From NCBI GenBank assembly GCA_016794425.1, contig JAEUHR010000042.1, forward strand, positions 144,749-208,748: a DNA stretch of 64,000 bases, read 5' to 3'. Under the pieces are notes generated by a model. The model was not told the origin of the DNA. It saw only the letters and a program-made list of their open reading frames with translations, and made no database searches. Position numbers and translations under genes: made by a program. Every line of letters begins with the position of its first letter. Positions within the stretch are counted from its first letter, which is position 1. The stretch comes from Planctomycetota bacterium (GTDB taxonomy: Bacteria; Planctomycetota; UBA1135; UBA2386). Shown one piece after another: positions 3,988 to 47,238 of the stretch.

Positions 3988-5501
3988 GACAGCGGCGGCA
4001 GCTGGCCCGCGCGCACGTAGGCCTGTTCGTAGAGGAACAGGCCGCCCCACAGCAGCACCGCGCACAGCGCCAGCGACGCCGGCGCCCCGGCGCCGACCGC
4101 GAGCAGCAGCAGCGCCAGCACGGCAGCCGCCGTCGACGTCGCCATGCCGGCATGGAACGCGCCGAGCCGGGTGCCGGGCCACGCCGGCACGCGCGGCAGC
4201 AGCGCCGCGGCCATGCGCGCGTTCGCCGTCTCGTGGTGGCCGAGGTGCTCGAACAGGCCGAGCCCGTGGTGCACGACCGCCATCGCCAGCACGAACAGAG
4301 CGAGGCGCAGGTCCGGCACGAACGGCAGCAGCGCCATGCCGCCGAGCGCGAGCGCCTGCACCATCAGGTGCGGCAGCAACAGCCGCGTGCGCTGCCACAG
4401 GTCGCGGCCCTCGCACTGCGCGAACAGGAACGCCGTGTAGGCCGCGGTCAGCGAGCCGGTCACGAGGTTGGTCCAGCGCAGCCCGTCGGCCAGCGCGTGC
4501 AGACCGAGCAGCCGCGCCGCGACGATCGCGGTCGTGATCGCGCCGAACGCCATCAGCACCCAGGCGCCCTTGACCAGCCAGCTGCGCGTGTTGGGCCGCA
4601 GCACGATCGACAGGAACTTGTGCGGCCGCTTCAGGTCGGCGACCAGCAGCACGTTGGTGACCGCCAGGAACACCAGCGCCAGCAGTTCCGGCAGGTAGTC
4701 GCGCACGGCGCCGTCCGCGCCCATGAACGCGACGAACGGCGCCCACAGCGCGGCGCCGGCGGCGATGCCCTTGGTGACCAGGTAGGCCGACACCTTCCAG
4801 CCCCAGTGCACCTTGTGGTCGACGTCGAGCGCGGTGCGCGCGTCGGGTCGGTAGAAGCGCGCCTCGTCTTCGGGCGACAGCGGCACCTTCGGCAGGCGCC
4901 GGTCGCTCCACAGGTACATGTCGGGCTCCTGCGCCGTGCCCGGCTCCAGCGTCGCCGGGTGGGCGCCGAGGTAGAACACGTTCGGGCCGGTGCCCTGTTC
5001 GACGCGCCGCGCGACGGCGCCGGGCACCTCGGCCAACAGCCGGCTCGCCGGGCTGTTCGGGTCGTGCAGGTCGCCGCTGACGATCGCCGTCTCGGGGCAG
5101 ACCACCTCACAGGCCGGCTTCAGTCCCTGCTCGACGCGGTGGGCGCAGAAGTGGCACTTCTCGGCGCCGCCGGTGTCGTCGTTCAGGTAGAGCGCGTCGT
5201 ACGGGCACCCCTGCATGCAGGCCTTGCAGCCGATGCAGACGTCCTTGTCCAGGTCGACGATGCCATCGGGCCGTTTGTGCAGCGCCGTGACCGGACAGAT
5301 CGTGACGCACGGGGCCGACGTACACTGGTTGCAGCGCAGCACCGCGAAGTGCCGGCGCACGGTCGGGAACGCGCCGACCTCGGTGTACTTGACCCAGGTC
5401 CGGAAGTCGCCGATCGGCACCTCGTTCTCGGACTTGCAGGCGGTGGTGCAGGCGTGGCAGCCGATGCATCGGCGCTGGTCGAGGACGAATCCGTACTGCA
5501 T
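3984..5501 (-). CDS. Fusion of a four-cluster [4Fe-4S] ferredoxin subunit (DmsB/PsrB/NrfC type) with an NrfD/PsrC-type polytopic membrane subunit
   Basis: This is the C-terminal 505 codons of track ORF 3984..6326(-), starting at ATG 5501 (MQYGFVLDQRRCIGCHACTTACK). Four Cys groups are present: CIGCHACTTAC, CNQCTSAPCVTICP, CIGCKACMQGCP and CHFCAHRVEQGLKPACEVVCP. They are followed by about 300 aa of hydrophobic helices. The N-terminal part of the track ORF (Ala/Thr repeats) is antisense of the RRM gene and was rejected. Confidence 0.8.
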   Translation of the reverse strand: MQYGFVLDQRRCIGCHACTTACKSENEVPIGDFRTWVKYTEVGAFPTVRRHFAVLRCNQCTSAPCVTICPVTALHKRPDGIVDLDKDVCIGCKACMQGCPYDALYLNDDTGGAEKCHFCAHRVEQGLKPACEVVCPETAIVSGDLHDPNSPASRLLAEVPGAVARRVEQGTGPNVFYLGAHPATLEPGTAQEPDMYLWSDRRLPKVPLSPEDEARFYRPDARTALDVDHKVHWGWKVSAYLVTKGIAAGAALWAPFVAFMGADGAVRDYLPELLALVFLAVTNVLLVADLKRPHKFLSIVLRPNTRSWLVKGAWVLMAFGAITTAIVAARLLGLHALADGLRWTNLVTGSLTAAYTAFLFAQCEGRDLWQRTRLLLPHLMVQALALGGMALLPFVPDLRLALFVLAMAVVHHGLGLFEHLGHHETANARMAAALLPRVPAWPGTRLGAFHAGMATSTAAAVLALLLLAVGAGAPASLALCAVLLWGGLFLYEQAYVRAGQLPPLS

Positions 5502-5780
5502 GCGGTCCGGCGAGGGGGACGGCGCACCATAGCAACCCGGGTGGGGGGCGCCACCTTCCCCTGGCGCACGAAATTCGCCTCCCGGCTTGCGCAGAAGCGG
5601 TCCGCCAGCGATCGTTCCCGCCACTTGCGACCTCCTCGGGCGCGCTTTGGTTGGTCCGCCTGTTTTCGCAGATCGATCGGGAACCCCTGCAGAGCTCGCT
5701 TTTCCCAGTTCGTTGGCACCAGGGGCTTGGCCCTTTCTCCGCTGGTGCGGCATCAGAGCAAAGGGTGAAGTGATCGTCAG

Positions 5781-6281
<501 letters not shown>

Positions 6282-18248: not shown

Positions 18249-18398
18249 CAGCACGGCGCGCTGCGGCGCGCGGTGGTCCGGCGCGGTCCCTGGCTCGGAC
18301 CCGGACCCGGGCAACTTGGCCCCTGGTCAAGTCCGCAGAGGTCTGGTCTGTTGGGTGTTTCCCCGCTCCGGCTCAGCCGAGCCGAGGAGACCCCGACG

Positions 18399-19799
18399 AT
18401 GCGCATCTCGACGTTCCTCTGCACCTTACCGTGGCTCGCTGTACTGGCACCTGCCCAGCACACGATCCTGTTCGTGGCCGGCTCGGCCGATCGCAACACG
18501 CTGGCGCTCGACGCACCCGAAGTCGACCTGATGCGCAGCGACGAGATCTACGAGGTCACGCCGCTGCTCGGCGTGGCCTACCCGGCGCGGCCGTTCCTGC
18601 CGATCAGCCTGCAGTACCACTACACCGGCGACCTCGACGGCGACGCGATCTACGTCGAGGACGACAGCGAAGGTCCCGGCGACACGATCGACGAGGTGTT
18701 CGTCAAGGCCGGCACCACGGGCCCGGTGACGCCGCGCGACGTCTACTGGAGCGTCGCGGCCGTGACCACCGCCAACATCCCGGGGCTGCGCGTCAGTGAC
18801 GTCGCGCGCTTCTCGGGCCAGGGCACGCTCGAGTTCTTCCTGACGCACGCGCAGCTGAACGACGCCTGCGGACTCGCCTCGACGTCGACCACGTGCAACC
18901 TCGACGCGCTGTGCCAGTCGGCGGGCGGCGACCTGTTCTTCTCGCAGGCCGGCACGATCACGATCAACGGTGTCTCCACCGAGGACGGTGACCTGTGGCG
19001 GATCCCGAGCGCGGCGATCACCTACGATGCCAACGGCAACGTCAGCGCGATCACCGTCGGCGCGGCGGTCCGCATCGCCACCGAAGACGACCTGATCGCG
19101 ATGGTCGTCGCCAGCGGGCAGCGCTCGTCGGTCGGCGGCGTCATCAACAGCGTCGCGAACCCGGCCTTCGAGCTGTCCGGCATCGAGATCGATCCGAACG
19201 GCGGCACCTGGACGTCGCCGATCGACGCGCAGAACTACCCGAACATCCTGTTCTGCTGGAACGACTTCAGCAACGACGGCGCGATCCTCAGCACGGCCGC
19301 CGGCGGTTCGATCGCGGTGGTCAACGGCGTGCCGATGGGCTCGACCGTCGCCACGCTCGGCGACCAGATCGGCATCCTGCCGGACAGCACCGGCACGTTC
19401 GGCCCCAACGGCCTCGCGCTGGTGCCGCTGCAGCCGCCGACCTTCACGCTGCAGAACTGGCCGGCCAACCAGTTCCCGGCCAGCGCGGTCTGGGTGCCGT
19501 TCCAGCTGCAGACCAGCGGCGGCACGCCGGCCGGCTTCACGGTGCTGGTCTGGTCGGTCGAGTCCGCGGCCGCCAACGGCACGTTCCCGGCGCTGCCGGC
19601 GTTCGCGCCGTTCGTCGGTGAGTTCGGCGTGCTCTCGCCGAACATCTTCGGCCTCTACGCCAACGACGCACTCGGCAACTGCGTGTCCGAGACCTTCCTG
19701 ATCGAGGCCGCCCTCGTGCACGGCGTCAACCTCGCCTGCCAGGCCCTCGACTTCACGACCTTCCGTCTGTCGACGCCGTCGGCGGCGACGTTCCTGTGA
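18399..19799 (+). CDS. Secreted protein of unknown function, tandem paralog A
   Basis: ATG 18399 is preceded by gaggaga. The signal peptide is MRISTFLCTLPWLAVLAPAQ. The protein aligns over its full length with the next gene. I recognise no known domain. Confidence 0.75.
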   Translation: MRISTFLCTLPWLAVLAPAQHTILFVAGSADRNTLALDAPEVDLMRSDEIYEVTPLLGVAYPARPFLPISLQYHYTGDLDGDAIYVEDDSEGPGDTIDEVFVKAGTTGPVTPRDVYWSVAAVTTANIPGLRVSDVARFSGQGTLEFFLTHAQLNDACGLASTSTTCNLDALCQSAGGDLFFSQAGTITINGVSTEDGDLWRIPSAAITYDANGNVSAITVGAAVRIATEDDLIAMVVASGQRSSVGGVINSVANPAFELSGIEIDPNGGTWTSPIDAQNYPNILFCWNDFSNDGAILSTAAGGSIAVVNGVPMGSTVATLGDQIGILPDSTGTFGPNGLALVPLQPPTFTLQNWPANQFPASAVWVPFQLQTSGGTPAGFTVLVWSVESAAANGTFPALPAFAPFVGEFGVLSPNIFGLYANDALGNCVSETFLIEAALVHGVNLACQALDFTTFRLSTPSAATFL

Positions 19800-19877
19800 G
19801 GTGCGCCGATGACGATTCCACGCTCGGCCGTTCCCTGCCGCCCTGTTCCCGCCTTCGCCACCCCTGGAGCCTTCCGG

Positions 19878-21260
19878 ATGCGCCCCTTCGCCTTCCCCGT
19901 CCTGTTCCCGCTGCTGCTGGCCGCCGTGCCGGCGCAGCATGCGATCCTCGTCACCTCGAGCGTCAGCGCCGGTGAACAGACGCTCGCGCTCGATCTGCCG
20001 GCCGTCGACTTCGTCGACCCCGATGCGATCTACGAAGTCGTGCCGCTGCCCGGTACGCCGTACAGCGCGCGGCCGTTCCTGCCGGTCAGCCTGCAATGGC
20101 ACTACGTCGGCGACCTCGACAACGACGGCCAGTACGTCGAGGGCTCGGTCGACGGACCGATGGGCTCGAGCGCGACGATCGACGAGATCTTCGTCAAGGC
20201 CGGCACCGTGGCGCCGGTCGGCCCGCGCGACGTGTTCTTCAGCATCTCGGCCGCGAATGCGGTGTTCGGCGTGCTCGCGTCGGACGTCGTGCGGTACGCC
20301 GGCCAAGGCGTGCGCGAGGTGTTCCTGACCGAGGCGCAGCTCGAAGTCGCGACCGGCGGCACGACGTTGAACCTCGACGCGCTGTGCCAATCGCCGGCCG
20401 GCGACCTGTTCCTGTCGTTCGCGCTCGGCGAGACCCTGCACTTCGGCAGCGCGCTCGACGGCGACCTGCTGTTCGTGCCGGCCAGCTCGATCACCTACGA
20501 CGGCAGCGGCAACGTGCTGTCGATCGCCGCCAACGCGGCGGTGCGGGTCGCCACCGAGGCCAACTTGGTGGCGATGCGCACCAACAGCGGCTTCCGCGAG
20601 TTCGACGGCACGACGCCGACGACGACGTTCAACCTGTCGGGCCTCGAGATCGACCCGAACGGCGGCACCTGGATCTCGCCGGTCGATGCGCTGGCGTACC
20701 CGAACGTGCTGTTCACCTGGAAGGACTCGTCGAACGACGGCGCGATCCTCAGCACCGCGGCCGGCGGCAGTTTCGCAGTCGTCAACGGCGTCACGCTCGG
20801 GTCGGCGGTGGCGACGACCGGTGCGCAGCTCGGCTGGCAGCCCGGCCTCAGCGGCACCAACGGCCCGAACGGGCTGGCCCTGATCCCGCTGCAGGCGCCG
20901 CAGTTCCAGGTGCTGAACTACCCGCGCAACCTGCACACGCAGGGCGACGGCCAGACGTTCGTGCAGCTGCAGACCAGCGGCGGCGCGCCGAACGGCTTCA
21001 CGATCCTGGCCTGGTCGGTCGAGGCGTCGGTGGCGGGTGGCACGTTCCCGGCGATCCCGGCGTTCGCGCCGTTCGCCGGCGAGTTCGGCATCACGGCGCC
21101 GCTGGTCATCGGTCTGTTCTTCAACGACGCGCTCGGCAACTGCGCGTCGCCGCTGATCGTGCTCGACACGGCGCTGATGTCCGGCGCGCAGGTCGCGGCG
21201 CAGGCCGTCGACTTCCCGTCGTTCCAGCTGTCGACGCCGTCGGCGATGAGCTTCCTGTGA
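19878..21260 (+). CDS. Secreted protein of unknown function, tandem paralog B
   Basis: ATG 19878 gives the signal peptide MRPFAFPVLFPLLLAAVPAQ. Blocks shared with paralog A include ARPFLP(I/V)SLQ, NLDALCQS, EIDPNGGTW, NDGAILSTAAGGS, LQTSGG, GTFPA(L/I)PAFAPF and the C-terminal LSTPSA..FL. Confidence 0.75.
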   Translation: MRPFAFPVLFPLLLAAVPAQHAILVTSSVSAGEQTLALDLPAVDFVDPDAIYEVVPLPGTPYSARPFLPVSLQWHYVGDLDNDGQYVEGSVDGPMGSSATIDEIFVKAGTVAPVGPRDVFFSISAANAVFGVLASDVVRYAGQGVREVFLTEAQLEVATGGTTLNLDALCQSPAGDLFLSFALGETLHFGSALDGDLLFVPASSITYDGSGNVLSIAANAAVRVATEANLVAMRTNSGFREFDGTTPTTTFNLSGLEIDPNGGTWISPVDALAYPNVLFTWKDSSNDGAILSTAAGGSFAVVNGVTLGSAVATTGAQLGWQPGLSGTNGPNGLALIPLQAPQFQVLNYPRNLHTQGDGQTFVQLQTSGGAPNGFTILAWSVEASVAGGTFPAIPAFAPFAGEFGITAPLVIGLFFNDALGNCASPLIVLDTALMSGAQVAAQAVDFPSFQLSTPSAMSFL

Positions 21261-21266
21261 GCGGCG

Positions 21267-21914
21267 TCAGCCGCTGACCGAATGCGCGAACGCGGCGGCC
21301 GCCGCGATCGCCGCCGCGAGGTGGCCGGCGGCCGTGTGGCCGCTGCGCTGGCGCGGCGCCAGCGAGTGGTCGCCGTCGGCGGACCACTCGACGCGGATCG
21401 CCGGCGCGAGCTCGTAGCCGGCGACCTCGGCGCGAGTGCCGAACGGGTCGCGTTCGCCCTGCAGGATCAAGGTCGGCGTGCGCAGCGTGCGCAGGTGCTC
21501 GGTGCGCAACTGTGTCGGGCGGCGCGGCGGGTGGAACGGGTAGCCGAACACGATCACGCCGGCGGCGCCGAGGTCGTCGGCGATCGTCGTCGCGACGCGG
21601 CCGCCCATCGACTTGCCGGCCAGCACGAACGGCGCCGGCGCGTGGGCGCGCACGACCTCGCGCATCGAGTCCTGCAGCACCGGCAGGCGGTCCGGTCCGC
21701 GCCGTCGCCCGCTGCGCGCGGCGTGCTGGTAGGGGAACTCGAAGCGCACGACCGCGAAGCCGGCTTCGGCGAGCCCGGCGGCGACCTGCGCGAGGAACGG
21801 GTGGTCCATGCCGGCCCCGGCGCCGTGCGCCAGCACGATCGTTGCCTGAGTGGAGCGGGGTCCATCTCGCAGAATCGGAGTGCCATCGGTCATGAGCGGA
21901 TCGGACGGGGCCAT
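21267..21914 (-). CDS. Alpha/beta hydrolase family protein (dienelactone hydrolase / KANL3-Tex30-like)
   Basis: VLAHGAGAGMDHPFL, the nucleophile-elbow-like GKSMGGR and LILQGERDPFG are present. The protein is 215 aa. Confidence 0.75.
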   Translation of the reverse strand: MAPSDPLMTDGTPILRDGPRSTQATIVLAHGAGAGMDHPFLAQVAAGLAEAGFAVVRFEFPYQHAARSGRRRGPDRLPVLQDSMREVVRAHAPAPFVLAGKSMGGRVATTIADDLGAAGVIVFGYPFHPPRRPTQLRTEHLRTLRTPTLILQGERDPFGTRAEVAGYELAPAIRVEWSADGDHSLAPRQRSGHTAAGHLAAAIAAAAAFAHSVSG

Positions 21915-22418
21915 GTGCTTCTTGCGGTACCGTCACGCACGACGCTTGCCGCGCGAGTGTTCCCGCGCGAGGGGCCTACTGCGGACAAGATCATCCGGCG
22001 CGGGGCAGCGTCTCAAGGGCGGAATGGTCCGCGAGCCTTGACGCGCAAGCGCAGCCGAACATGGAGTTCGAAGGCGTGGCACCCCTAAGCAGCGGCTGGC
22101 CCCGCTGGACGGCTGGTGGCAGCGACACGGGCCGCTGCTCGACGGGCCGGGGGAGTCGTACGCACTCGACCAGGAAGCCACGCCCAGCTTCAACGACACC
22201 ACAGGGTCGCGAGCGGCCGGCCAAGGCTCCTCGTCCAGCAGCGCGCCGACAGCGACTCGCGCGTCGCCCGGCGTCGCCGGTAATCACGGCTGTGCGGCCG
22301 TACACAGGTCCTGCGGCTCCAATCTGCGGGCTGGCCGATCGCCTGACTGACGGTGTGTGGCGATGAAGGGCTGGTGGCGGCTGAGACCATAGTAGCATAG
22401 CTTCCATGGAGGTTGGTC

Positions 22419-23510
22419 ATGGCGATGCGTAGAACTGGTTGCCTACTTGCAGCGGCGTTGTGTGTTGCGTCAGGCGGAGTGGCTCAGCGGGAGCCTGCTC
22501 GAAGTGGGTTGGTATGCGTAGCGGGTGCGCCGTGGGTCTGGCGCGTCACGGACAGCGGCCGGGTTGAATTGTCAGCAATCAGGGAGCAGGGCGGCGAAAC
22601 GAGATTCGATGACTGGCAGGCTGTTCCGGGCGTGGGGGGCGCCGTGAAGCGAGTTGTGTGGTGTGCGGCTGAAGAGGTTGAGCCTGGACTGCTTTGTGTC
22701 GTGACGCGACTGATGCCGGGGGCGTCGTCCTGCATTCAGGTCGCCGTAGTAGAGGTTGCAGATGGGTTCATCCGTGTCGCAGGGCTAGCCGAGATTGGCG
22801 AAGTCCGCTTCATGCGAGAGGTGGAGTCCGGGGGTGCGCCGGCCGGTCAGGATGGCGTCGTACAAATGGCGACCCAAGATGTCCGCGGAGCTGTGCTCTT
22901 GGATTGGCGGCCGGCCGTACGAGAGGGGCGGTGCTTGATAGAGGTCGGGGGCTTGCATGGGGAGGCGGGAGCGAGCCCGCAGGGAGCGGTGCGTGGGGCG
23001 GTATTGGAGTGCATCGTTGCCTTCGCGGCCGTTCCTCGTGAGGCGGACCGGGCGCCTGTGCCTCTCGAGCGACAGAGTCTGTTTGGAGAGTGGCGGTGGG
23101 CTGGGCGTGATCTGAAGGGCTTGCATGGTTCTGGGGCCGTAGCTGCGGGTGTGCGCGTGGGAGACGGAGTGACCGATGCGGTGTGTGTGTGGCGGCGAGC
23201 GGGCGGGAATGGCTGGATGCCGGCGGGTGGATTTGTTGTGGGTGGCGCCGAGTGGTATGAGATGGAGTCCTTGGGCGAGGATGGTCGTGGTGTCGTGATG
23301 ACGTGCCGTGCCGGTGAGGCTGGCGTTGTCATGTGTCGTTCGTGGGCGTCGGTGAATGGTGAGAGGAAGTGGGAGGTGTGTGATGAGCGGGTCTGGCGTC
23401 CAAGCAGCCAGCACCTGCGACCCACGGGCTATGCGAGCGTGGGCAAGCATGAATGGGTGCTATGGAGCGGGCGTGGGGGCGGCGAACAGGTGACGCGGTA
23501 CCGGCGATGA
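22419..23510 (+). CDS. Orphan secreted Trp/Cys/Gly/Val-rich protein in a compositionally atypical island
   Basis: This is the only long open frame in a region of visibly lower GC. ggagg lies 6 nt before ATG 22419. The signal-peptide-like N-terminus is MAMRRTGCLLAAALCVASGGVAQ. Codon third positions are far less GC-biased than in all neighbours. I recognise no domain. Confidence 0.55.
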   Translation: MAMRRTGCLLAAALCVASGGVAQREPARSGLVCVAGAPWVWRVTDSGRVELSAIREQGGETRFDDWQAVPGVGGAVKRVVWCAAEEVEPGLLCVVTRLMPGASSCIQVAVVEVADGFIRVAGLAEIGEVRFMREVESGGAPAGQDGVVQMATQDVRGAVLLDWRPAVREGRCLIEVGGLHGEAGASPQGAVRGAVLECIVAFAAVPREADRAPVPLERQSLFGEWRWAGRDLKGLHGSGAVAAGVRVGDGVTDAVCVWRRAGGNGWMPAGGFVVGGAEWYEMESLGEDGRGVVMTCRAGEAGVVMCRSWASVNGERKWEVCDERVWRPSSQHLRPTGYASVGKHEWVLWSGRGGGEQVTRYRR

Positions 23511-23771
23511 GGAGATCGCTCGGACTGCGAGTGCGCTCGTCCTCTCGGTGAATGGCCCTGCTCACTCGGAGTGTCTTCGACTGCGGGCAGAACGAGTCGT
23601 TCGGCCCTTTGCTCGGGCGCGAGCCAACAGGTTGCTTGCGCAAAGGGCAGCGATGGGTGGAGGCTCGGCGGATGCAGCGACCGCACGGGGAAGCTGAAGC
23701 CGGGGAATACCCAGGTGATCCGGTGGTCGGGCGGACTTGGTCGCTGTGACGATGGAGTAGTCGCCTGCCGC

Positions 23772-24482
23772 TTACTTGGGGCTCGGCGCGGGCTCTGCCG
23801 CGGCGGTCGGTGGCACAACCAGCTTGCCATCGGCACCGACCGGGCCGACGACGACCAGCGTCTCGGGCCAGAACGTCACGCGCGGCTTGATCACCAGCGA
23901 GTCCGGGAACATGCGGCGCAGCTGGCGCGCGGTCAGCAGGTGCACGTCGCTGAAGTCGTTGCCGGGCATGTAGCGGCCGCGCACGTGGTTGTAGGCCCAC
24001 ATTCTGGTCAGCTTGTGCATCGCCTTCGGCGGCAGCCACGACACGAACGGCATGCGGGCGTGGAACTCGAACGGATACCACTTGTTCGGCGTGGTCAGGA
24101 ACCAGCGCTTGCCGACGCGGCGCACCTCGTCGGCCATGCGCGCCTGGTCGTCGAGGGTGCCGACGTGTTCGATCACCGCGTTGCTGTAGACGAGGTCGAA
24201 CGACTTGTCCTCGAACGGCAGTTTGCGCGCGTCGGCCTGCACGGTCGTGATGCCGGGGTAGGCCTGGCGGATGTTGTCGAGGTGCTCCGGGAACAGGTTG
24301 GCCGCGGTGATGCGGCTCTTGTCCGGGAAGCGCTCGAGGATCTGGCGCGACTGCGCGTCGACCTGGCTGCCGATGTCGAGCACGCGTTCCTTGCCGGTCA
24401 GCGGCAGGTAGCGCTCGAGCAGCTCCATCTTGATCCGGCGCGAGCGCAGCGACAGCCGGTTGAACAGCGCGGTGATGCCCAT
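23772..24482 (-). CDS. Class I SAM-dependent methyltransferase (Methyltransf_11-like)
   Basis: ATG 24482 gives MGITALFNRL. The SAM-binding motif VLDIGSQ and the block FDLVYSNAVIEHV are present. The stop is TAA. Confidence 0.8.
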   Translation of the reverse strand: MGITALFNRLSLRSRRIKMELLERYLPLTGKERVLDIGSQVDAQSRQILERFPDKSRITAANLFPEHLDNIRQAYPGITTVQADARKLPFEDKSFDLVYSNAVIEHVGTLDDQARMADEVRRVGKRWFLTTPNKWYPFEFHARMPFVSWLPPKAMHKLTRMWAYNHVRGRYMPGNDFSDVHLLTARQLRRMFPDSLVIKPRVTFWPETLVVVGPVGADGKLVVPPTAAAEPAPSPK

Positions 24483-24912: not shown

Positions 24913-25950
24913 CTACGGCCGCCGGCAGTGCACGCGCAGCTGGTTGAAGTCCAGGTGCTCGGAATGCACCGCGAAGCGCCGCACCGACAACCAGGTGAAG
25001 CCGGCGCGTTCGACGGCCTGCCGCAGGTGGGCTTCGGTCCAAAAGCGCATCGTCCAGGTGTCGTCGCCGGGTGGATCCACCGGGGCGCCTGGCACCGCCT
25101 CGGGCATCTGGAACACGAAATCGCCGCCGGGGCGCAACACGCGGAAGCTCTCGCGGAAGTAGGCGTGGGTGACGTGGCGCGGGGCGTGTTGCAGCACGAT
25201 GTGCGTGAACACGAGCCCTGTGTCCTGGTCCGGCAGCGGCAGCGAGACGCCGTCGCATTCGAGGAAGCGCACGTTCGGCAGATGGCGCAGCCGCGCGGTG
25301 GCACGCGCGACCATCTCGCCGCTGACGTCGACGCCGGTCAGCGCCGCGACGCGCGGCGCGACGAACTCGTCCATGCGGCCGATGCCGCAGCCGATGTCGA
25401 CCACGGTCTGTCGCGGGTGCAGCAGGTGCTCGAGGTCGCTGAAGAACGCCTGCACGTCGCGCTGGCCGGAGGCGCGGAAGGCCTCGCTGCCGGCGTCCGG
25501 CGGGGCCGAGGCGATGTAGAACTCGGCGTTCTCGCGCGCCCGACGGTTCCAGTCGCCCTTCATGTCGAGCCGTCCGCCGGCGAGTGCTTGCGACACGATC
25601 GCGTGTTCGGCGACGACCTCGCCGCCGATCAGGTGGCGCTGCACGATCTGCTCGAGCACCGGCGGGTCGCAGTTCGCGTACCAGGTGCCCTCGGGGTAGA
25701 CGACCGCGATCGGCCCGCCCTTGCAGATGCGCAGGCACGGGCTCTTGCTGCGCTGCACGCCGCCGCACTCGGACAGGCCGAGTTCCTTCAGCCGGGCCTT
25801 CAGCCAGTTCCACGCTGCCAGGCTGCGGTCGCGGTCGCAGCACTTCGGCTCGGCCTGGTCGCAGCACAGGAAGATGTGCCGGCGCGCCACCGGCAGGCCG
25901 AGTTTCTGGGCGATCGCGCGCAGGTCGGTGCGGGCCTCGGTGTCGTCCAT
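24913..25950 (-). CDS. Fusion protein: thioredoxin-like [2Fe-2S] ferredoxin domain plus class I SAM methyltransferase domain
   Basis: ATG 25950. The N-terminal [14 protein letters not shown]...[20 protein letters not shown] matches the thioredoxin-like 2Fe-2S ferredoxin pattern. The C-terminal [10 protein letters not shown] ... [10 protein letters not shown] is a methyltransferase fold. Confidence 0.75.
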
Positions 25951-26060
25951 CGCCGCAGCATCGCACGCCGGGCCGGCCAATGCCAAACGGCAGCGCCGCA
26001 GTGGGTGCCGGGCGCCGTATTCCGCCGCCGTCGGCGAGCCACTATGGTCCCGCGCCCCGC

Positions 26061-27407
26061 ATGGATGCGAACTCCTCCCGGGCCCGGTCGCGCGACCGGG
26101 CCGAAGTGCAGCGCGCCACGCTGCTGGCCGAACTGCGCGCGGCGCGCGCCCGGACCGACGATCTGTTCGCGCGGTTGCGTCCCGACGGCTACTTCGTGCG
26201 CGCGATCGCCGAGCGGCACCGGTTGATCTTCTACCTGGGCCACCTCGAGGCGTTCGACTGGAACCTGCTCGGCCGCGAGGTGCGGCAGCGGCCGCCGCGC
26301 AACGCGGCGTGGGAGCGCCTGTTCGCGTTCGGCATCGACCCGGTCGACGGCCAGCTGCCGAGCGACACGCCGGCCGACTGGCCCGACCTCGGCGCCGTGC
26401 GCGGATTCGCGGCCGACCTGCGCGCCGCCGTCGACGCCGAACTGGCGACCGCGCCGTTCACCGGCTGGCTCGAGAACGGCTGGGCGCTGCGCATGGCGAT
26501 CGAACACCGCGCGATGCACGCCGAGACGCTGGCCTACCTGCTGCAGCGCGTGCCGCTCGAGCTGAAGCTGCCGGGCCCGCTGCCGCACGGACTCGAGTCG
26601 CCGCCGCCGCCGCGCGAGATGGTCGCGATCCCGGCCGGTCGCGCACGGCTCGGCAAGAGCCGCGCCGCGGCGCCGCACGACGGCTGGGACAACGAGTACG
26701 AGGCGCACGAGGTCGCGGTGCCGGCGTTCCGGATCGCGCGGCACGCGGTCACCAACGCCGAGTGGCTCGAGTTCGTCACCGCCGGCGGCTACGCCGACGA
26801 CGCGTGGTGGACGCCGGCCGACGCGGCCTGGCGGCGGCAACACGGCGTCACGCTGCCGGCGTTCTGGCGCCGCACCGACGCCGGCTACTGCTGGCAGGCG
26901 ATGTTCGGCAGTGTGCCCCTGCCGCTCGCCTGGCCGGTCTGGGTCAGCCTCGCCGAGGCGCGCGCGTTCGCGCGCTGGCGCGGCCAGCGGTTGCCGACCG
27001 AAGCCGAGTGGCACCGCGCAGCGCTCGGCACCCCGGCCGGCGGTGACCGCCTGCAGCCGTGGGGCGACGCCGCGCCGGTGCCCGGCGTGCACGGCAACTT
27101 CGGCTTCGCGGCGTTCGACCCGGCGCCGGTCGACGCGCACCCGCGCGGCCAGAGCGCGTTCGGCGTGCACGGTCTGGTCGGCAACGGCTGGCAGTGGACC
27201 GACACGGTGTTCGCGCCGTTCGCCGGCTTCACACCGCTGCCGTTCTACCGCGGCTACTCGGCGAACTTCTTCGACGGGAAGCACTTCGTGATGAAGGGCG
27301 CCAGCCCGGTCACCGAGCCGTGCTTCCTGCGGCCGTCGTTCCGCAACTGGTTCCAGCCGCACTACCCGTACGTGTTCGCGGGCTTCCGCTGCGTCGCCCC
27401 GGCCTAG
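26061..27407 (+). CDS. EgtB/OvoA-like non-haem iron enzyme (DinB_2 domain plus FGE-sulfatase/SUMF1 domain)
   Basis: ATG 26061. The N-terminal DinB-like segment has YLGHLEAF and EHRAMHAE (His ligand pattern). The C-terminal has [19 protein letters not shown] and the terminal FAGFRCV typical of the FGE-sulfatase fold. Confidence 0.75.
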
Positions 27408-46189: not shown

Positions 46190-47238
46190 CGCTGCGTGTC
46201 GGCGTGATGACCGGCGGCGGCGACGCCCCCGGACTCAACGCGGCGATCTGTGGTCTCGGCCGCCGGCTGATCGCGGCCGGCGCCGAGCTGATCGGCTTCG
46301 AGGACGGCTGGCGCGGCCTGATCCAGGACCGCACGCGGTCGCTGCAGGACGCGAACCTGCAGCACCTCTTGGTCTACGGCGGCACGCTGCTCGGCAGCAG
46401 CGGCGACAACCCGTACCGCAAGCCGGCCGAGATGGTGCCGAAGGTGCTGGCGACCGTGGCGCGGCACCGGCTCGACGCGCTGGTCGCGATCGGCGGCGAA
46501 GGCACGCTCGGCGCCGCCGACCGGTTGTTCCGCGAGCACGCGCTGCCGGTCGTCGGCGTGCCGAAGACGATCGACAACGATCTGGCCGGCACCGACTTCA
46601 CGTTCGGCTTCTTCTCGGCGGTCGAGGTCGCGACGCGGGCGATGGACGACCTGCGCAGCACTGCCGAGTCGCACGGCCGCGTCATGGTGGTGGAGTGCAT
46701 GGGCCGCCACGCCGGCTGGATCACGGCCTACGCGGGCGTCGCGGCCGGCGCCGAAGGCATCCTGGTGCCGGAACGGCCGGCCCACGTCGAAGAACTGTGC
46801 GACCGGCTGGTCCGCCTGCGCCAGAGCGGCGCCAAGTCCGCGATCGTCGCCGCTGCCGAGGGCGCCCGCGTGTTCGAGGGCGGCACCTGCCTGTCGTCGA
46901 GCGAACGCGACGAGTTCGGCGAGTACAAGACCGGCGGCACCGCGGCGCTGCTGGCGCAGCGGATCCAGGCGCGGATCGGCTGGGAGGCGCGGCACCTGGT
47001 GCTGGGGCACCTGCAGCGGGCCGGCCGGCCGATCGCGTTCGATCGCATCTTCGCGCTGCGGCTCGGTGCGCGCACCGCCCGACTGGTGCTCGAACGCCGC
47101 TTCGGGTACATGGCGGCGATGCGCGCGGGTGAGATCATCGAAGTGCCGCTGCAGGAGGCCGTCGCCGAGCGCAAGGTGCTGTCGGCGCAGTTCCTCGACC
47201 GCTACGAGTCGTTCTTCCTGCCGATCGGAGGCCTGTGA
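46186..47238 (+). CDS. pfkA: 6-phosphofructokinase (ATP-type signature)
   Basis: GTG 46186 overlaps the upstream stop (GTGA). [33 protein letters not shown] and MGRHAGW are present. Confidence 0.9.

Follow-up and report, generated by a model that had tools for sequence, protein, structure and literature searches.

Compositionally foreign single-gene islets and ORFans are a familiar phenomenon, marked by atypical GC content at third codon positions (GC3), codon usage and tetranucleotide signature, by confinement to a single lineage with almost no homologues, and by a position between conserved neighbours at a junction whose cargo varies from one relative to the next. All of these traits recur in the gene described here, an open reading frame (ORF) at 22419..23510 (+) in a 64,000-nucleotide chromosome segment of a Planctomycetota bacterium (assembly GCA_016794425.1, contig JAEUHR010000042.1, positions 144,749 to 208,748; hereafter the window; overall GC 0.72). 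Most likely, the ORF is a new instance of this phenomenon, encoding a near-orphan exported protein. It departs from other islets and ORFans in having no integrase, tRNA or direct-repeat scar, and from usual transferred chromosomal genes in its GC skew, which at 0.36 over 1.1 kb is far stronger. Set beside a classical genomic island or integrative element, it has the atypical composition and the absence from close relatives, but neither an integrase or transposase nor a tRNA or att repeat.

A second point of comparison is the imprint that strand asymmetry leaves on whole proteomes, as in the leading-strand genes of skewed genomes (Borrelia) and the G+T-rich heavy strand of vertebrate mitochondrial DNA (mtDNA). 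There, as in the ORF, a keto (G+T) excess reaches all codon positions, with Val, Gly, Trp and Cys increased and Thr, His, Asn, Ile and Pro reduced. In those systems, however, the bias is replicon-wide, whereas here it is limited to one 1.16-kb gene.

On balance, we think it probable that the gap in which the ORF lies holds one functional, monocistronic accessory gene that recently entered, by horizontal transfer, an otherwise conserved gene cluster at a variable junction. The insertion site would be the MT2–4HBT thioesterase–[MT1]–hydrolase cluster of a high-GC Planctomycetota genome, MT1 and MT2 being S-adenosylmethionine (SAM) methyltransferase genes. The incoming gene would bring its own translation signals (GGAGG and ATG) and probably its own promoter in an AT-richer leader; an N-terminal signal peptide would send the product to the Sec pathway, and the product, built mainly of beta strands, would have an extracytoplasmic role. 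Low GC3, non-host codons and the keto excess would then record the nucleotide-level history of the donor, putatively a lower-GC replicon with strong strand asymmetry, in a gene not yet reshaped to host composition, and the same nucleotide bias would account for the high content of Trp, Cys, Gly, Val and Arg. A preliminary description of the locus had proposed an accessory gene that either was acquired horizontally or is evolving rapidly, and this proposal is supported by the alien synonymous sites and the absence from relatives reported below, from which we infer horizontal transfer as the cause.

Coding status, composition and genomic junction

The ORF occupies a gap of 1857 bp (21915..23771) between an alpha/beta hydrolase gene (Abhydrolase_11; 21267..21914, −; Pfam PF20408, E 1.7e-72), which is native with a GC3 of 0.92, and MT1, the gene for a class I SAM methyltransferase of 236 aa (23772..24482, −; Pfam Methyltransf_11, E 1.1e-14; GC3 0.90). 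It is the one long frame inside this gap, specifies 363 aa plus a stop codon, and is called identically in Logan contigs. The same hydrolase–ORF–MT1–thioesterase order is present in two independent Logan assemblies (SRR28640823 and SRR28640826; 99.87% identity), and an assembly chimera is excluded because the junctions are identical in three independent assemblies, these two and the window.

The ORF is a real protein-coding gene, a judgement with good support because it combines an open frame longer than any simulated one with codon periodicity, a GGAGG, a signal-peptide-like start and a homologue, P0002. Its stop-free run of 369 codons was reached in none of 5000 first-order Markov simulations (maximum 336), and the other two forward frames contain 16 and 13 stops. 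Base usage differs among its codon positions (chi2 29, p 6e-5) beyond all 1000 random stop-free controls, and codon periodicity of this type is absent from the spacers on either side. The Shine-Dalgarno sequence GGAGG (22408-22412) lies 6 nt ahead of the ATG at 22419, the good spacing remarked on in the preliminary description; a full GGAGG was found at no other start among about 20 inspected, the positions of those starts being approximate. A gene in antisense or in an alternative frame was also considered and rejected: the reverse-strand ORFs, of 221 and 192 aa, are shorter than the 241 codons expected on average by chance, and Pfam gives no match for them.

These results bear directly on the possibility that the frame is non-functional, either as the decaying remnant of transferred DNA or as a fortuitous open frame in G+T-rich DNA. 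Such a frame would be expected to show what the ORF does show in part: a weak contrast in GC among codon positions (0.73/0.56/0.66) that weakens further over the last ~100 codons, an amino-acid content near random for the base composition, very low AlphaFold confidence with no family annotation, and no detectable consensus promoter of the sigma-70 type or consensus terminator. Yet the 13–16 in-frame stops expected of it are absent, the periodicity exceeds that of every stop-free random control, the Shine-Dalgarno sequence is at optimal spacing, and the homologue is full-length and collinear, with the same leader and size. Moreover, the coding sequence is identical in the window and both Logan assemblies, and the four differences between the window and the Logan contigs (21790 G/A, 21801 G/A, 21952 C/T and 22086 T/G) all fall outside the ORF, within 297 nt (21790-22086) that run from the 5' end of the hydrolase gene into the left spacer, with none in the other 2855 aligned nt. 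We therefore regard a non-functional frame as distinctly improbable. The 297-nt cluster itself, two of whose substitutions are inside the left spacer, may be the edge of a recombination tract.

The composition of the ORF is foreign to its host. Its GC is 0.65 against 0.72 for the window, and its GC3 is 0.66 against 0.87–0.97 in about 30 native genes; GC at the first and second positions (GC1 and GC2) is nevertheless high because GC2 is intrinsically high in the family (0.55 in P0002, 0.56 in the ORF). At four-fold degenerate sites the ORF has 15.8% A, 23.2% C, 39.5% G and 21.5% T, where native genes have 1.6, 48.8, 47.3 and 2.3%, respectively, so that A or T ends 37% of these codons compared with 3.9% natively, in line with the A/T-ending codons that had been noticed by eye. 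Codon choice shifts accordingly, from 86% to 35% GGC for Gly and from 73% to 11% CGC for Arg, and from 2% to 43% TTG for Leu and from 9% to 69% GAT for Asp. In strand-symmetrised tetranucleotide profile the ORF correlates with the window at 0.70, as against 0.95 +/- 0.035 for other 1.1-kb windows, and the lowest correlations anywhere in the window are those of the ORF itself. By GC, GC3, skew and tetranucleotides, the measures that the preliminary description had put forward, the ORF thus differs clearly from its neighbours.

The genomic position points in the same direction. The closest relatives, as judged by flanking orthologues, are uncultured Planctomycetota metagenome-assembled genomes, whose hydrolase orthologues are 71–79% identical, and their conserved gene order (hydrolase on +) is MT2–4HBT thioesterase–hydrolase. 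The thioesterase/hydrolase junction is closed, at 20–45 nt, in loci L003, L007, L008, L009, L013, L014 and L016; it holds MT1 and a ~200 nt spacer before the hydrolase in L006, and an unrelated pair of secreted paralogues (secA/secB) on the opposite strand in L004 and L005, with MT1 also present in L004. In the window it holds MT1 and the ORF, and the secA/secB pair lies on the other side of the hydrolase. The ORF is missing from 15 related Planctomycetota loci with the flanking genes, tblastn matching only the same-strain contigs L001 and L002, and protein searches of the relatives' proteomes gave no match. Because the junction contents differ among relatives and the ORF matches none of them, the junction appears from these alignments to be recurrently remodelled and the ORF to be lineage-specific cargo. 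This is the synteny comparison that had been suggested at the outset, and in it the junction is closed or filled with other cargo, never with the ORF. MT1, found among the relatives only in the window, L004 and L006, is itself accessory, an earlier insertion into this junction. What the locus offers, on the reading we prefer, is a clean single-gene acquisition in the core neighbourhood of an uncultured Planctomycetota lineage, at a junction that took other cargo in sister lineages; horizontal acquisition of this sort is common, the extreme G+T content of the coding strand notwithstanding.

Marks of mobility are lacking, as the preliminary description had stated for integrase, tRNA and flanking direct repeats, and as Pfam, ARAGORN/Rfam and repeat searches confirm. 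No integrase, recombinase or transposase was found by Pfam within ~10 kb (neighbours at 9.2–32.5 kb), where all genes are housekeeping or metabolic, belonging to core metabolism and translation: MiaB-like, RibD, IF-3, 2-oxoglutarate dehydrogenase, the hydrolase, methyltransferases, 4HBT, EgtB-like, ABC1 and aldehyde dehydrogenase. ARAGORN placed no tRNA near the gap and Rfam none in the window, and direct repeats flanking the gap reach at most 21 nt at 76–81% identity, which is chance level.

Strand asymmetry and its possible origins

The ORF carries the strongest G>C and T>A asymmetry in the window, with a GC skew of 0.356, where the background is only ~0.02–0.05, and a G+T content of 0.648 (0.148 above 0.5) that peaks at 0.723 at position 23101, more than 6 sd over the mean. 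Maximal-scoring segments extend over 22352-23399 for G+T richness and 22352-23514 for G>C, the latter with a score of 44–47 compared with 10–14 for the runner-up. The asymmetry covers the ORF and ~65 nt of leader, not the entire 1857-bp gap; the G+T richness that had been attributed to the gap as a whole holds for 22352-23514, whereas the left spacer is unskewed (GC 0.69–0.70) and the right spacer only weakly skewed. Since the G>C and T>A excess is present also at four-fold synonymous sites, the primary cause operates on the DNA itself. Among 4490 comparison windows of 1.1 kb (1.3 Mb from 81 diverse bacterial loci), the maxima were 0.207 for GC skew and 0.588 for G+T (an excess of 0.088).

One possible sister case and two candidate causes of the skew were examined and set aside. 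The runner-up G+T-rich segment, at 6043-6251, is no sister case, being the RGG/Gly tail of an RRM protein; a replication origin or terminus is rejected by a cumulative skew with no switch across the window; and a deaminase-type sequence context is rejected, as having fewer C-ending codons is enough to explain why AC and TC dinucleotides are depleted.

Could the asymmetry have arisen in place? A local, strand-specific mutational process might have driven the coding strand to G+T, the gene then being a fast-evolving resident or an older acquisition, the candidate processes being transcription-associated asymmetry of damage or repair and repeated single-stranded exposure of the non-template strand, with protein composition following the bias. 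In its favour, the limits of the skew are transcript-like, from ~65 nt before the ATG to the stop codon with fading in the 3' spacer; every codon position is affected, as are the four-fold sites; amino-acid composition is at nucleotide expectation; the magnitude is beyond anything in the 1.3 Mb of comparison DNA; and comparison with P0002 shows net excesses of C>G (82 vs 38), C>T (39 vs 14) and A>G (42 vs 29) changes. However, A at four-fold sites has risen tenfold, from 1.6% to 15.8%, an increase that lies beyond the reach of C loss from the coding strand alone and therefore reflects a general drop in GC3 on both strands, as for foreign DNA. The main net change, C>G, is no deamination product, many stop codons would be expected where the frame is intact, the dinucleotide shifts are explained by the change in codon endings, and the relatives have no homologue to serve as an ancestral copy. 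We accordingly favour an inherited donor signature for the G+T excess and consider a local mutational mechanism unlikely, though worth keeping in view: the size of this gene-confined excess is the one unusual aspect of the locus, and it would be of wider interest if such a mechanism proved true.

A more specific form of this idea, in which the skew is the footprint of ongoing, locus-specific, strand-biased mutation, rapidly varying a secreted protein whose frame is held open by selection, has in our estimate a slim chance of being correct. Such whole-gene hypermutation would lack a retroelement, and transcription-coupled or single-strand-specific damage of the non-template strand may be its agent. 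In a search for a diversity-generating retroelement, no part of the island was found repeated in the window, internal repeats were no longer than a 12-nt duplicate, and no reverse transcriptase was present among the neighbouring genes.

Time spent single-stranded biases DNA towards G+T, for example in phages with single-stranded DNA (ssDNA) and in the heavy strand of vertebrate mtDNA. The region 22352-23771 might on these grounds be a fragment of a replicon with an ssDNA stage, such as a filamentous phage or microphage, a rolling-circle plasmid or a transposon, with the keto excess on the packaged or displaced strand and the ORF encoding a secreted protein of structural or adsorption type. The G+T-rich coding strand has the direction of bias expected from general knowledge of such replicons, the asymmetry exceeds that of chromosomal DNA, and the protein is Gly-rich with a putative signal peptide. 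Against this, no match to PHROGs was better than E 0.05, none was found in 50,697 phage records, 72,556 plasmids or IMG/VR contigs, the neighbourhood has no Rep, Zot or coat-like gene, no terminal repeats and no att-like duplication, and P0002 sits among ordinary chromosomal genes with a normal composition. An origin of this kind is, in our view, very unlikely.

Returning to recent horizontal transfer of a functional gene, the reading that we prefer, several observations count against it and are best considered together. The strand asymmetry of the ORF is above the maximum of all 4490 comparison windows; an ordinary chromosomal donor therefore fails to explain it, and ordinary transfer does not account for its size. 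The skew also follows the extent of the transcription unit, not that of the gap as a whole, which a local process would predict likewise. No integrase, tRNA, direct repeat or other link to a mobile element marks the locus, and profile, tblastn and blastn searches of phages, plasmids, and viral and metagenome contigs returned no match to a donor. The ORF shows no population variation, among the window and the two Logan assemblies, on which purifying selection could be assessed, the case for export is made by inspection of the sequence alone, and with AlphaFold confidence values (pLDDT) of 36–38 the beta-rich fold is weakly supported.

The encoded protein and its homologue

The N-terminus of the product, MAMRRTGCLLAAALCVASGGVAQ (22419..22487, +), reads in translation as a basic n-region, a hydrophobic core and a small-residue c-region. 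Its layout, MAMRR / TGCLLAAALCVA / SGGVAQ, fits a leader for signal peptidase I by inspection, in keeping with the signal-peptide-like start of the preliminary description. A lipobox of the form [LVI][ASTVI][GAS]C is absent, Cys8 following R-T-G and Cys15 following A-A-L. The protein is probably exported by way of a putative Sec signal peptide.

When 1.84 billion cluster representatives were searched exhaustively with HMMER, exactly one relative was recovered, P0002 (E 2.6e-6). It is a hypothetical secreted protein of 357 aa, thus of the same size class, and is 27–29% identical and collinear over ORF residues ~45–267. BLASTP with composition adjustment gives 2e-13, and the Smith-Waterman score of 156 compares with 39 +/- 6 when the biased query is shuffled 1000 times (z 18.8); because the shuffle score is far lower, the similarity is not an artefact of composition. 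The two proteins have in common the motifs GG(L/I)H, V(L/I)EC and GEW..AG.D and an aligned hydrophobic N-terminal leader, and neither has a match in Pfam, NCBIfam, PHROGs or the PDB. P0002 comes from a 131-kb contig of ~65% GC (JANQJF010000029.1, assembly GCA_028281765.1), and unlike the ORF it is ordinary for its own genome in base composition (GC3 0.78, skew 0.00) and ordinary in Trp and Cys (2.2% and 1.1%). An 826-aa secreted protein of no assigned function is encoded 27 nt upstream of it, and Kelch and FG-GAP repeat proteins nearby; this gene context points to an extracytoplasmic role, to judge from the predicted products. None of these neighbours has a counterpart in the window, and a search for paralogues of P0002 at its own locus found none.

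No further homologue emerged among ~15 billion proteins, whether from word-indexed searches with the ORF, a two-sequence profile and P0002 or from exhaustive HMMER. Pfam, NCBIfam and PADLOC gave zero matches for both members of the pair (P0001 and P0002), the best PHROGs match (E 0.049 over 11 residues) and the best PDB profile match (E 0.067) being not significant. The term orphan is therefore apt in that no annotated family applies, and too strong in that one distant homologue exists. Together the ORF and P0002 define a two-member family of putatively exported proteins that have neither a known fold nor a known function. Kinship with the neighbouring secreted paralogues secA and secB was rejected (BLASTP E >= 1).

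The preliminary description had called the protein Trp/Cys-rich, with about 16 Trp and a dozen Cys. The counts are 15 Trp (4.1%) and 12 Cys (3.3%), high indeed, yet 4.1% Trp and 3.9% Cys are expected from mononucleotide frequencies alone, and the amino-acid frequencies correlate better with the base-frequency expectation (r = 0.89) than with the native proteome (0.75). Because Trp and Cys stand at nucleotide-expected levels, the residue bias is derivative of the base bias: it is a by-product with no independent structural signal, and no feature of the protein in its own right. This calls for caution, in that Trp/Cys richness arising arithmetically from base composition is not evidence for a disulfide-rich or Trp-cage fold. 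Structure prediction, like the protein searches, had been proposed at the start. AlphaFold reached a pLDDT of 36.5 from the single sequence and 37.6 from the two-sequence alignment, and the features constant between models were a helix over residues 2–19 followed by beta strands. The product is probably an exported, beta-rich protein of the periplasm or cell surface, as far as these models and the leader allow.

Leader, spacers and neighbouring genes

The G>C/T>A asymmetry begins with the leader (22352..22418, +), which holds the GGAGG and the AT-rich motif CATAGTAGCATAGC (22388-22401). This motif, recorded in the preliminary description as lying upstream of the start, is 18–31 nt 5' of the ATG, unique in the window and statistically unremarkable; it is a possible −10-like element. 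The left spacer (21915..22351, 437 nt) is non-coding, resembles other native spacers in GC (~0.69–0.70 compared with 0.65–0.70) and has no strand skew; presumably it holds divergent candidate promoters for the hydrolase gene and the ORF. The right spacer (23511..23771, 261 nt), towards which the ORF and MT1 converge with their stop codons, has a weak G>C skew (G 0.387, C 0.272). Within it, GCCCTTTGC (23604-23612) and GCAAAGGGC (23640-23648) form a perfect inverted repeat of 9 bp, a candidate terminator hairpin with no T-run.

The two flanks, 21915..22418 and 23511..23771, had been described as free of any convincing ORF, and this stands: no codon phase at native-type GC3 runs through 21861-23801 apart from short blips, and neither the spacers nor the alternative frames of the gap have Pfam matches. 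Could the functional unit instead be a non-coding RNA (ncRNA) or a structured element with a regulatory role, located in the spacers or on the strand antisense to the long ORF, the ORF itself being incidental? The spacers, at 437–498 nt and 261 nt, are long for so compact a window, and the right one folds marginally better than its shuffles (z = −1.85). However, the left one (21915-22420) folds worse than shuffles (z = +1.19), the reverse-strand ORFs are below chance length, and Rfam 15 gives no relevant match at E <= 1 in 21500-24200 (one spurious snoRNA falls outside the gap) and no family at gathering thresholds in the whole window. Nor are the spacers conserved in any relative: against the relatives' intergenic DNA there is no similarity at word size 7, and tblastx yields only composition-driven noise. 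We hold an ncRNA unit of this kind to be extremely improbable.

Within the left spacer, a patch of ~130 nt (22072-22200, + frame) has native-like periodicity with a GC3 of ~0.9 and translates as PKQRLAPLDGWWQRHGPLLDGPGESYALDQEATPSFND. The patch lacks a start codon, and none of 83 loci contains a homologue; it could be the relic of a disrupted native gene or a product of chance, and as a pseudogene relic it is not statistically compelling.

Several features of the neighbourhood deserve mention. MT1 combines a native GC3 (0.90) with low GC1 and GC2 (0.63/0.51), and has a weak PADLOC match to mad2 (E 5.8e-10) that probably reflects only the generic methyltransferase fold. The genes secA and secB (18273-21260 in the window) encode tandem paralogous secreted proteins of ~480–510 aa, 53–55% identical and with no Pfam match. 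In the window they are flanked by the genes for 2-oxoglutarate dehydrogenase and the hydrolase, whereas in L004 (6951-9769) and L005 (6966-9836) they lie between the hydrolase and MT1/thioesterase, and they are absent from the locus in L006. Because their position differs between the window and L004/L005, the hydrolase has in effect changed sides, a gene order suggestive of repeated rearrangement in its surroundings.

Beyond the thioesterase, MT2 (24913..25986, −) stands head-to-head with the gene for a DinB_2 and FGE-sulfatase protein resembling EgtB/OvoA (region 24913-27407). The N-terminal extension of MT2 matches no Pfam family, and its pairing with the EgtB/OvoA-like gene is conserved in relatives, which suggests a thiol-histidine-type biosynthetic module beside the thioesterase and hydrolase. 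The sole ARAGORN call in the window, a 94-nt 'tRNA-???' with the four-base anticodon gccg at 46335-46428 (−), is probably a false positive because Rfam models give no tRNA at gathering thresholds. Finally, the RRM-type RNA-binding protein encoded at 5781-6281 (+) carries a long RGG/Gly-rich C-terminal tail (6043-6251), upstream of which lies a GC-poor (0.65) spacer at 5499-5854.

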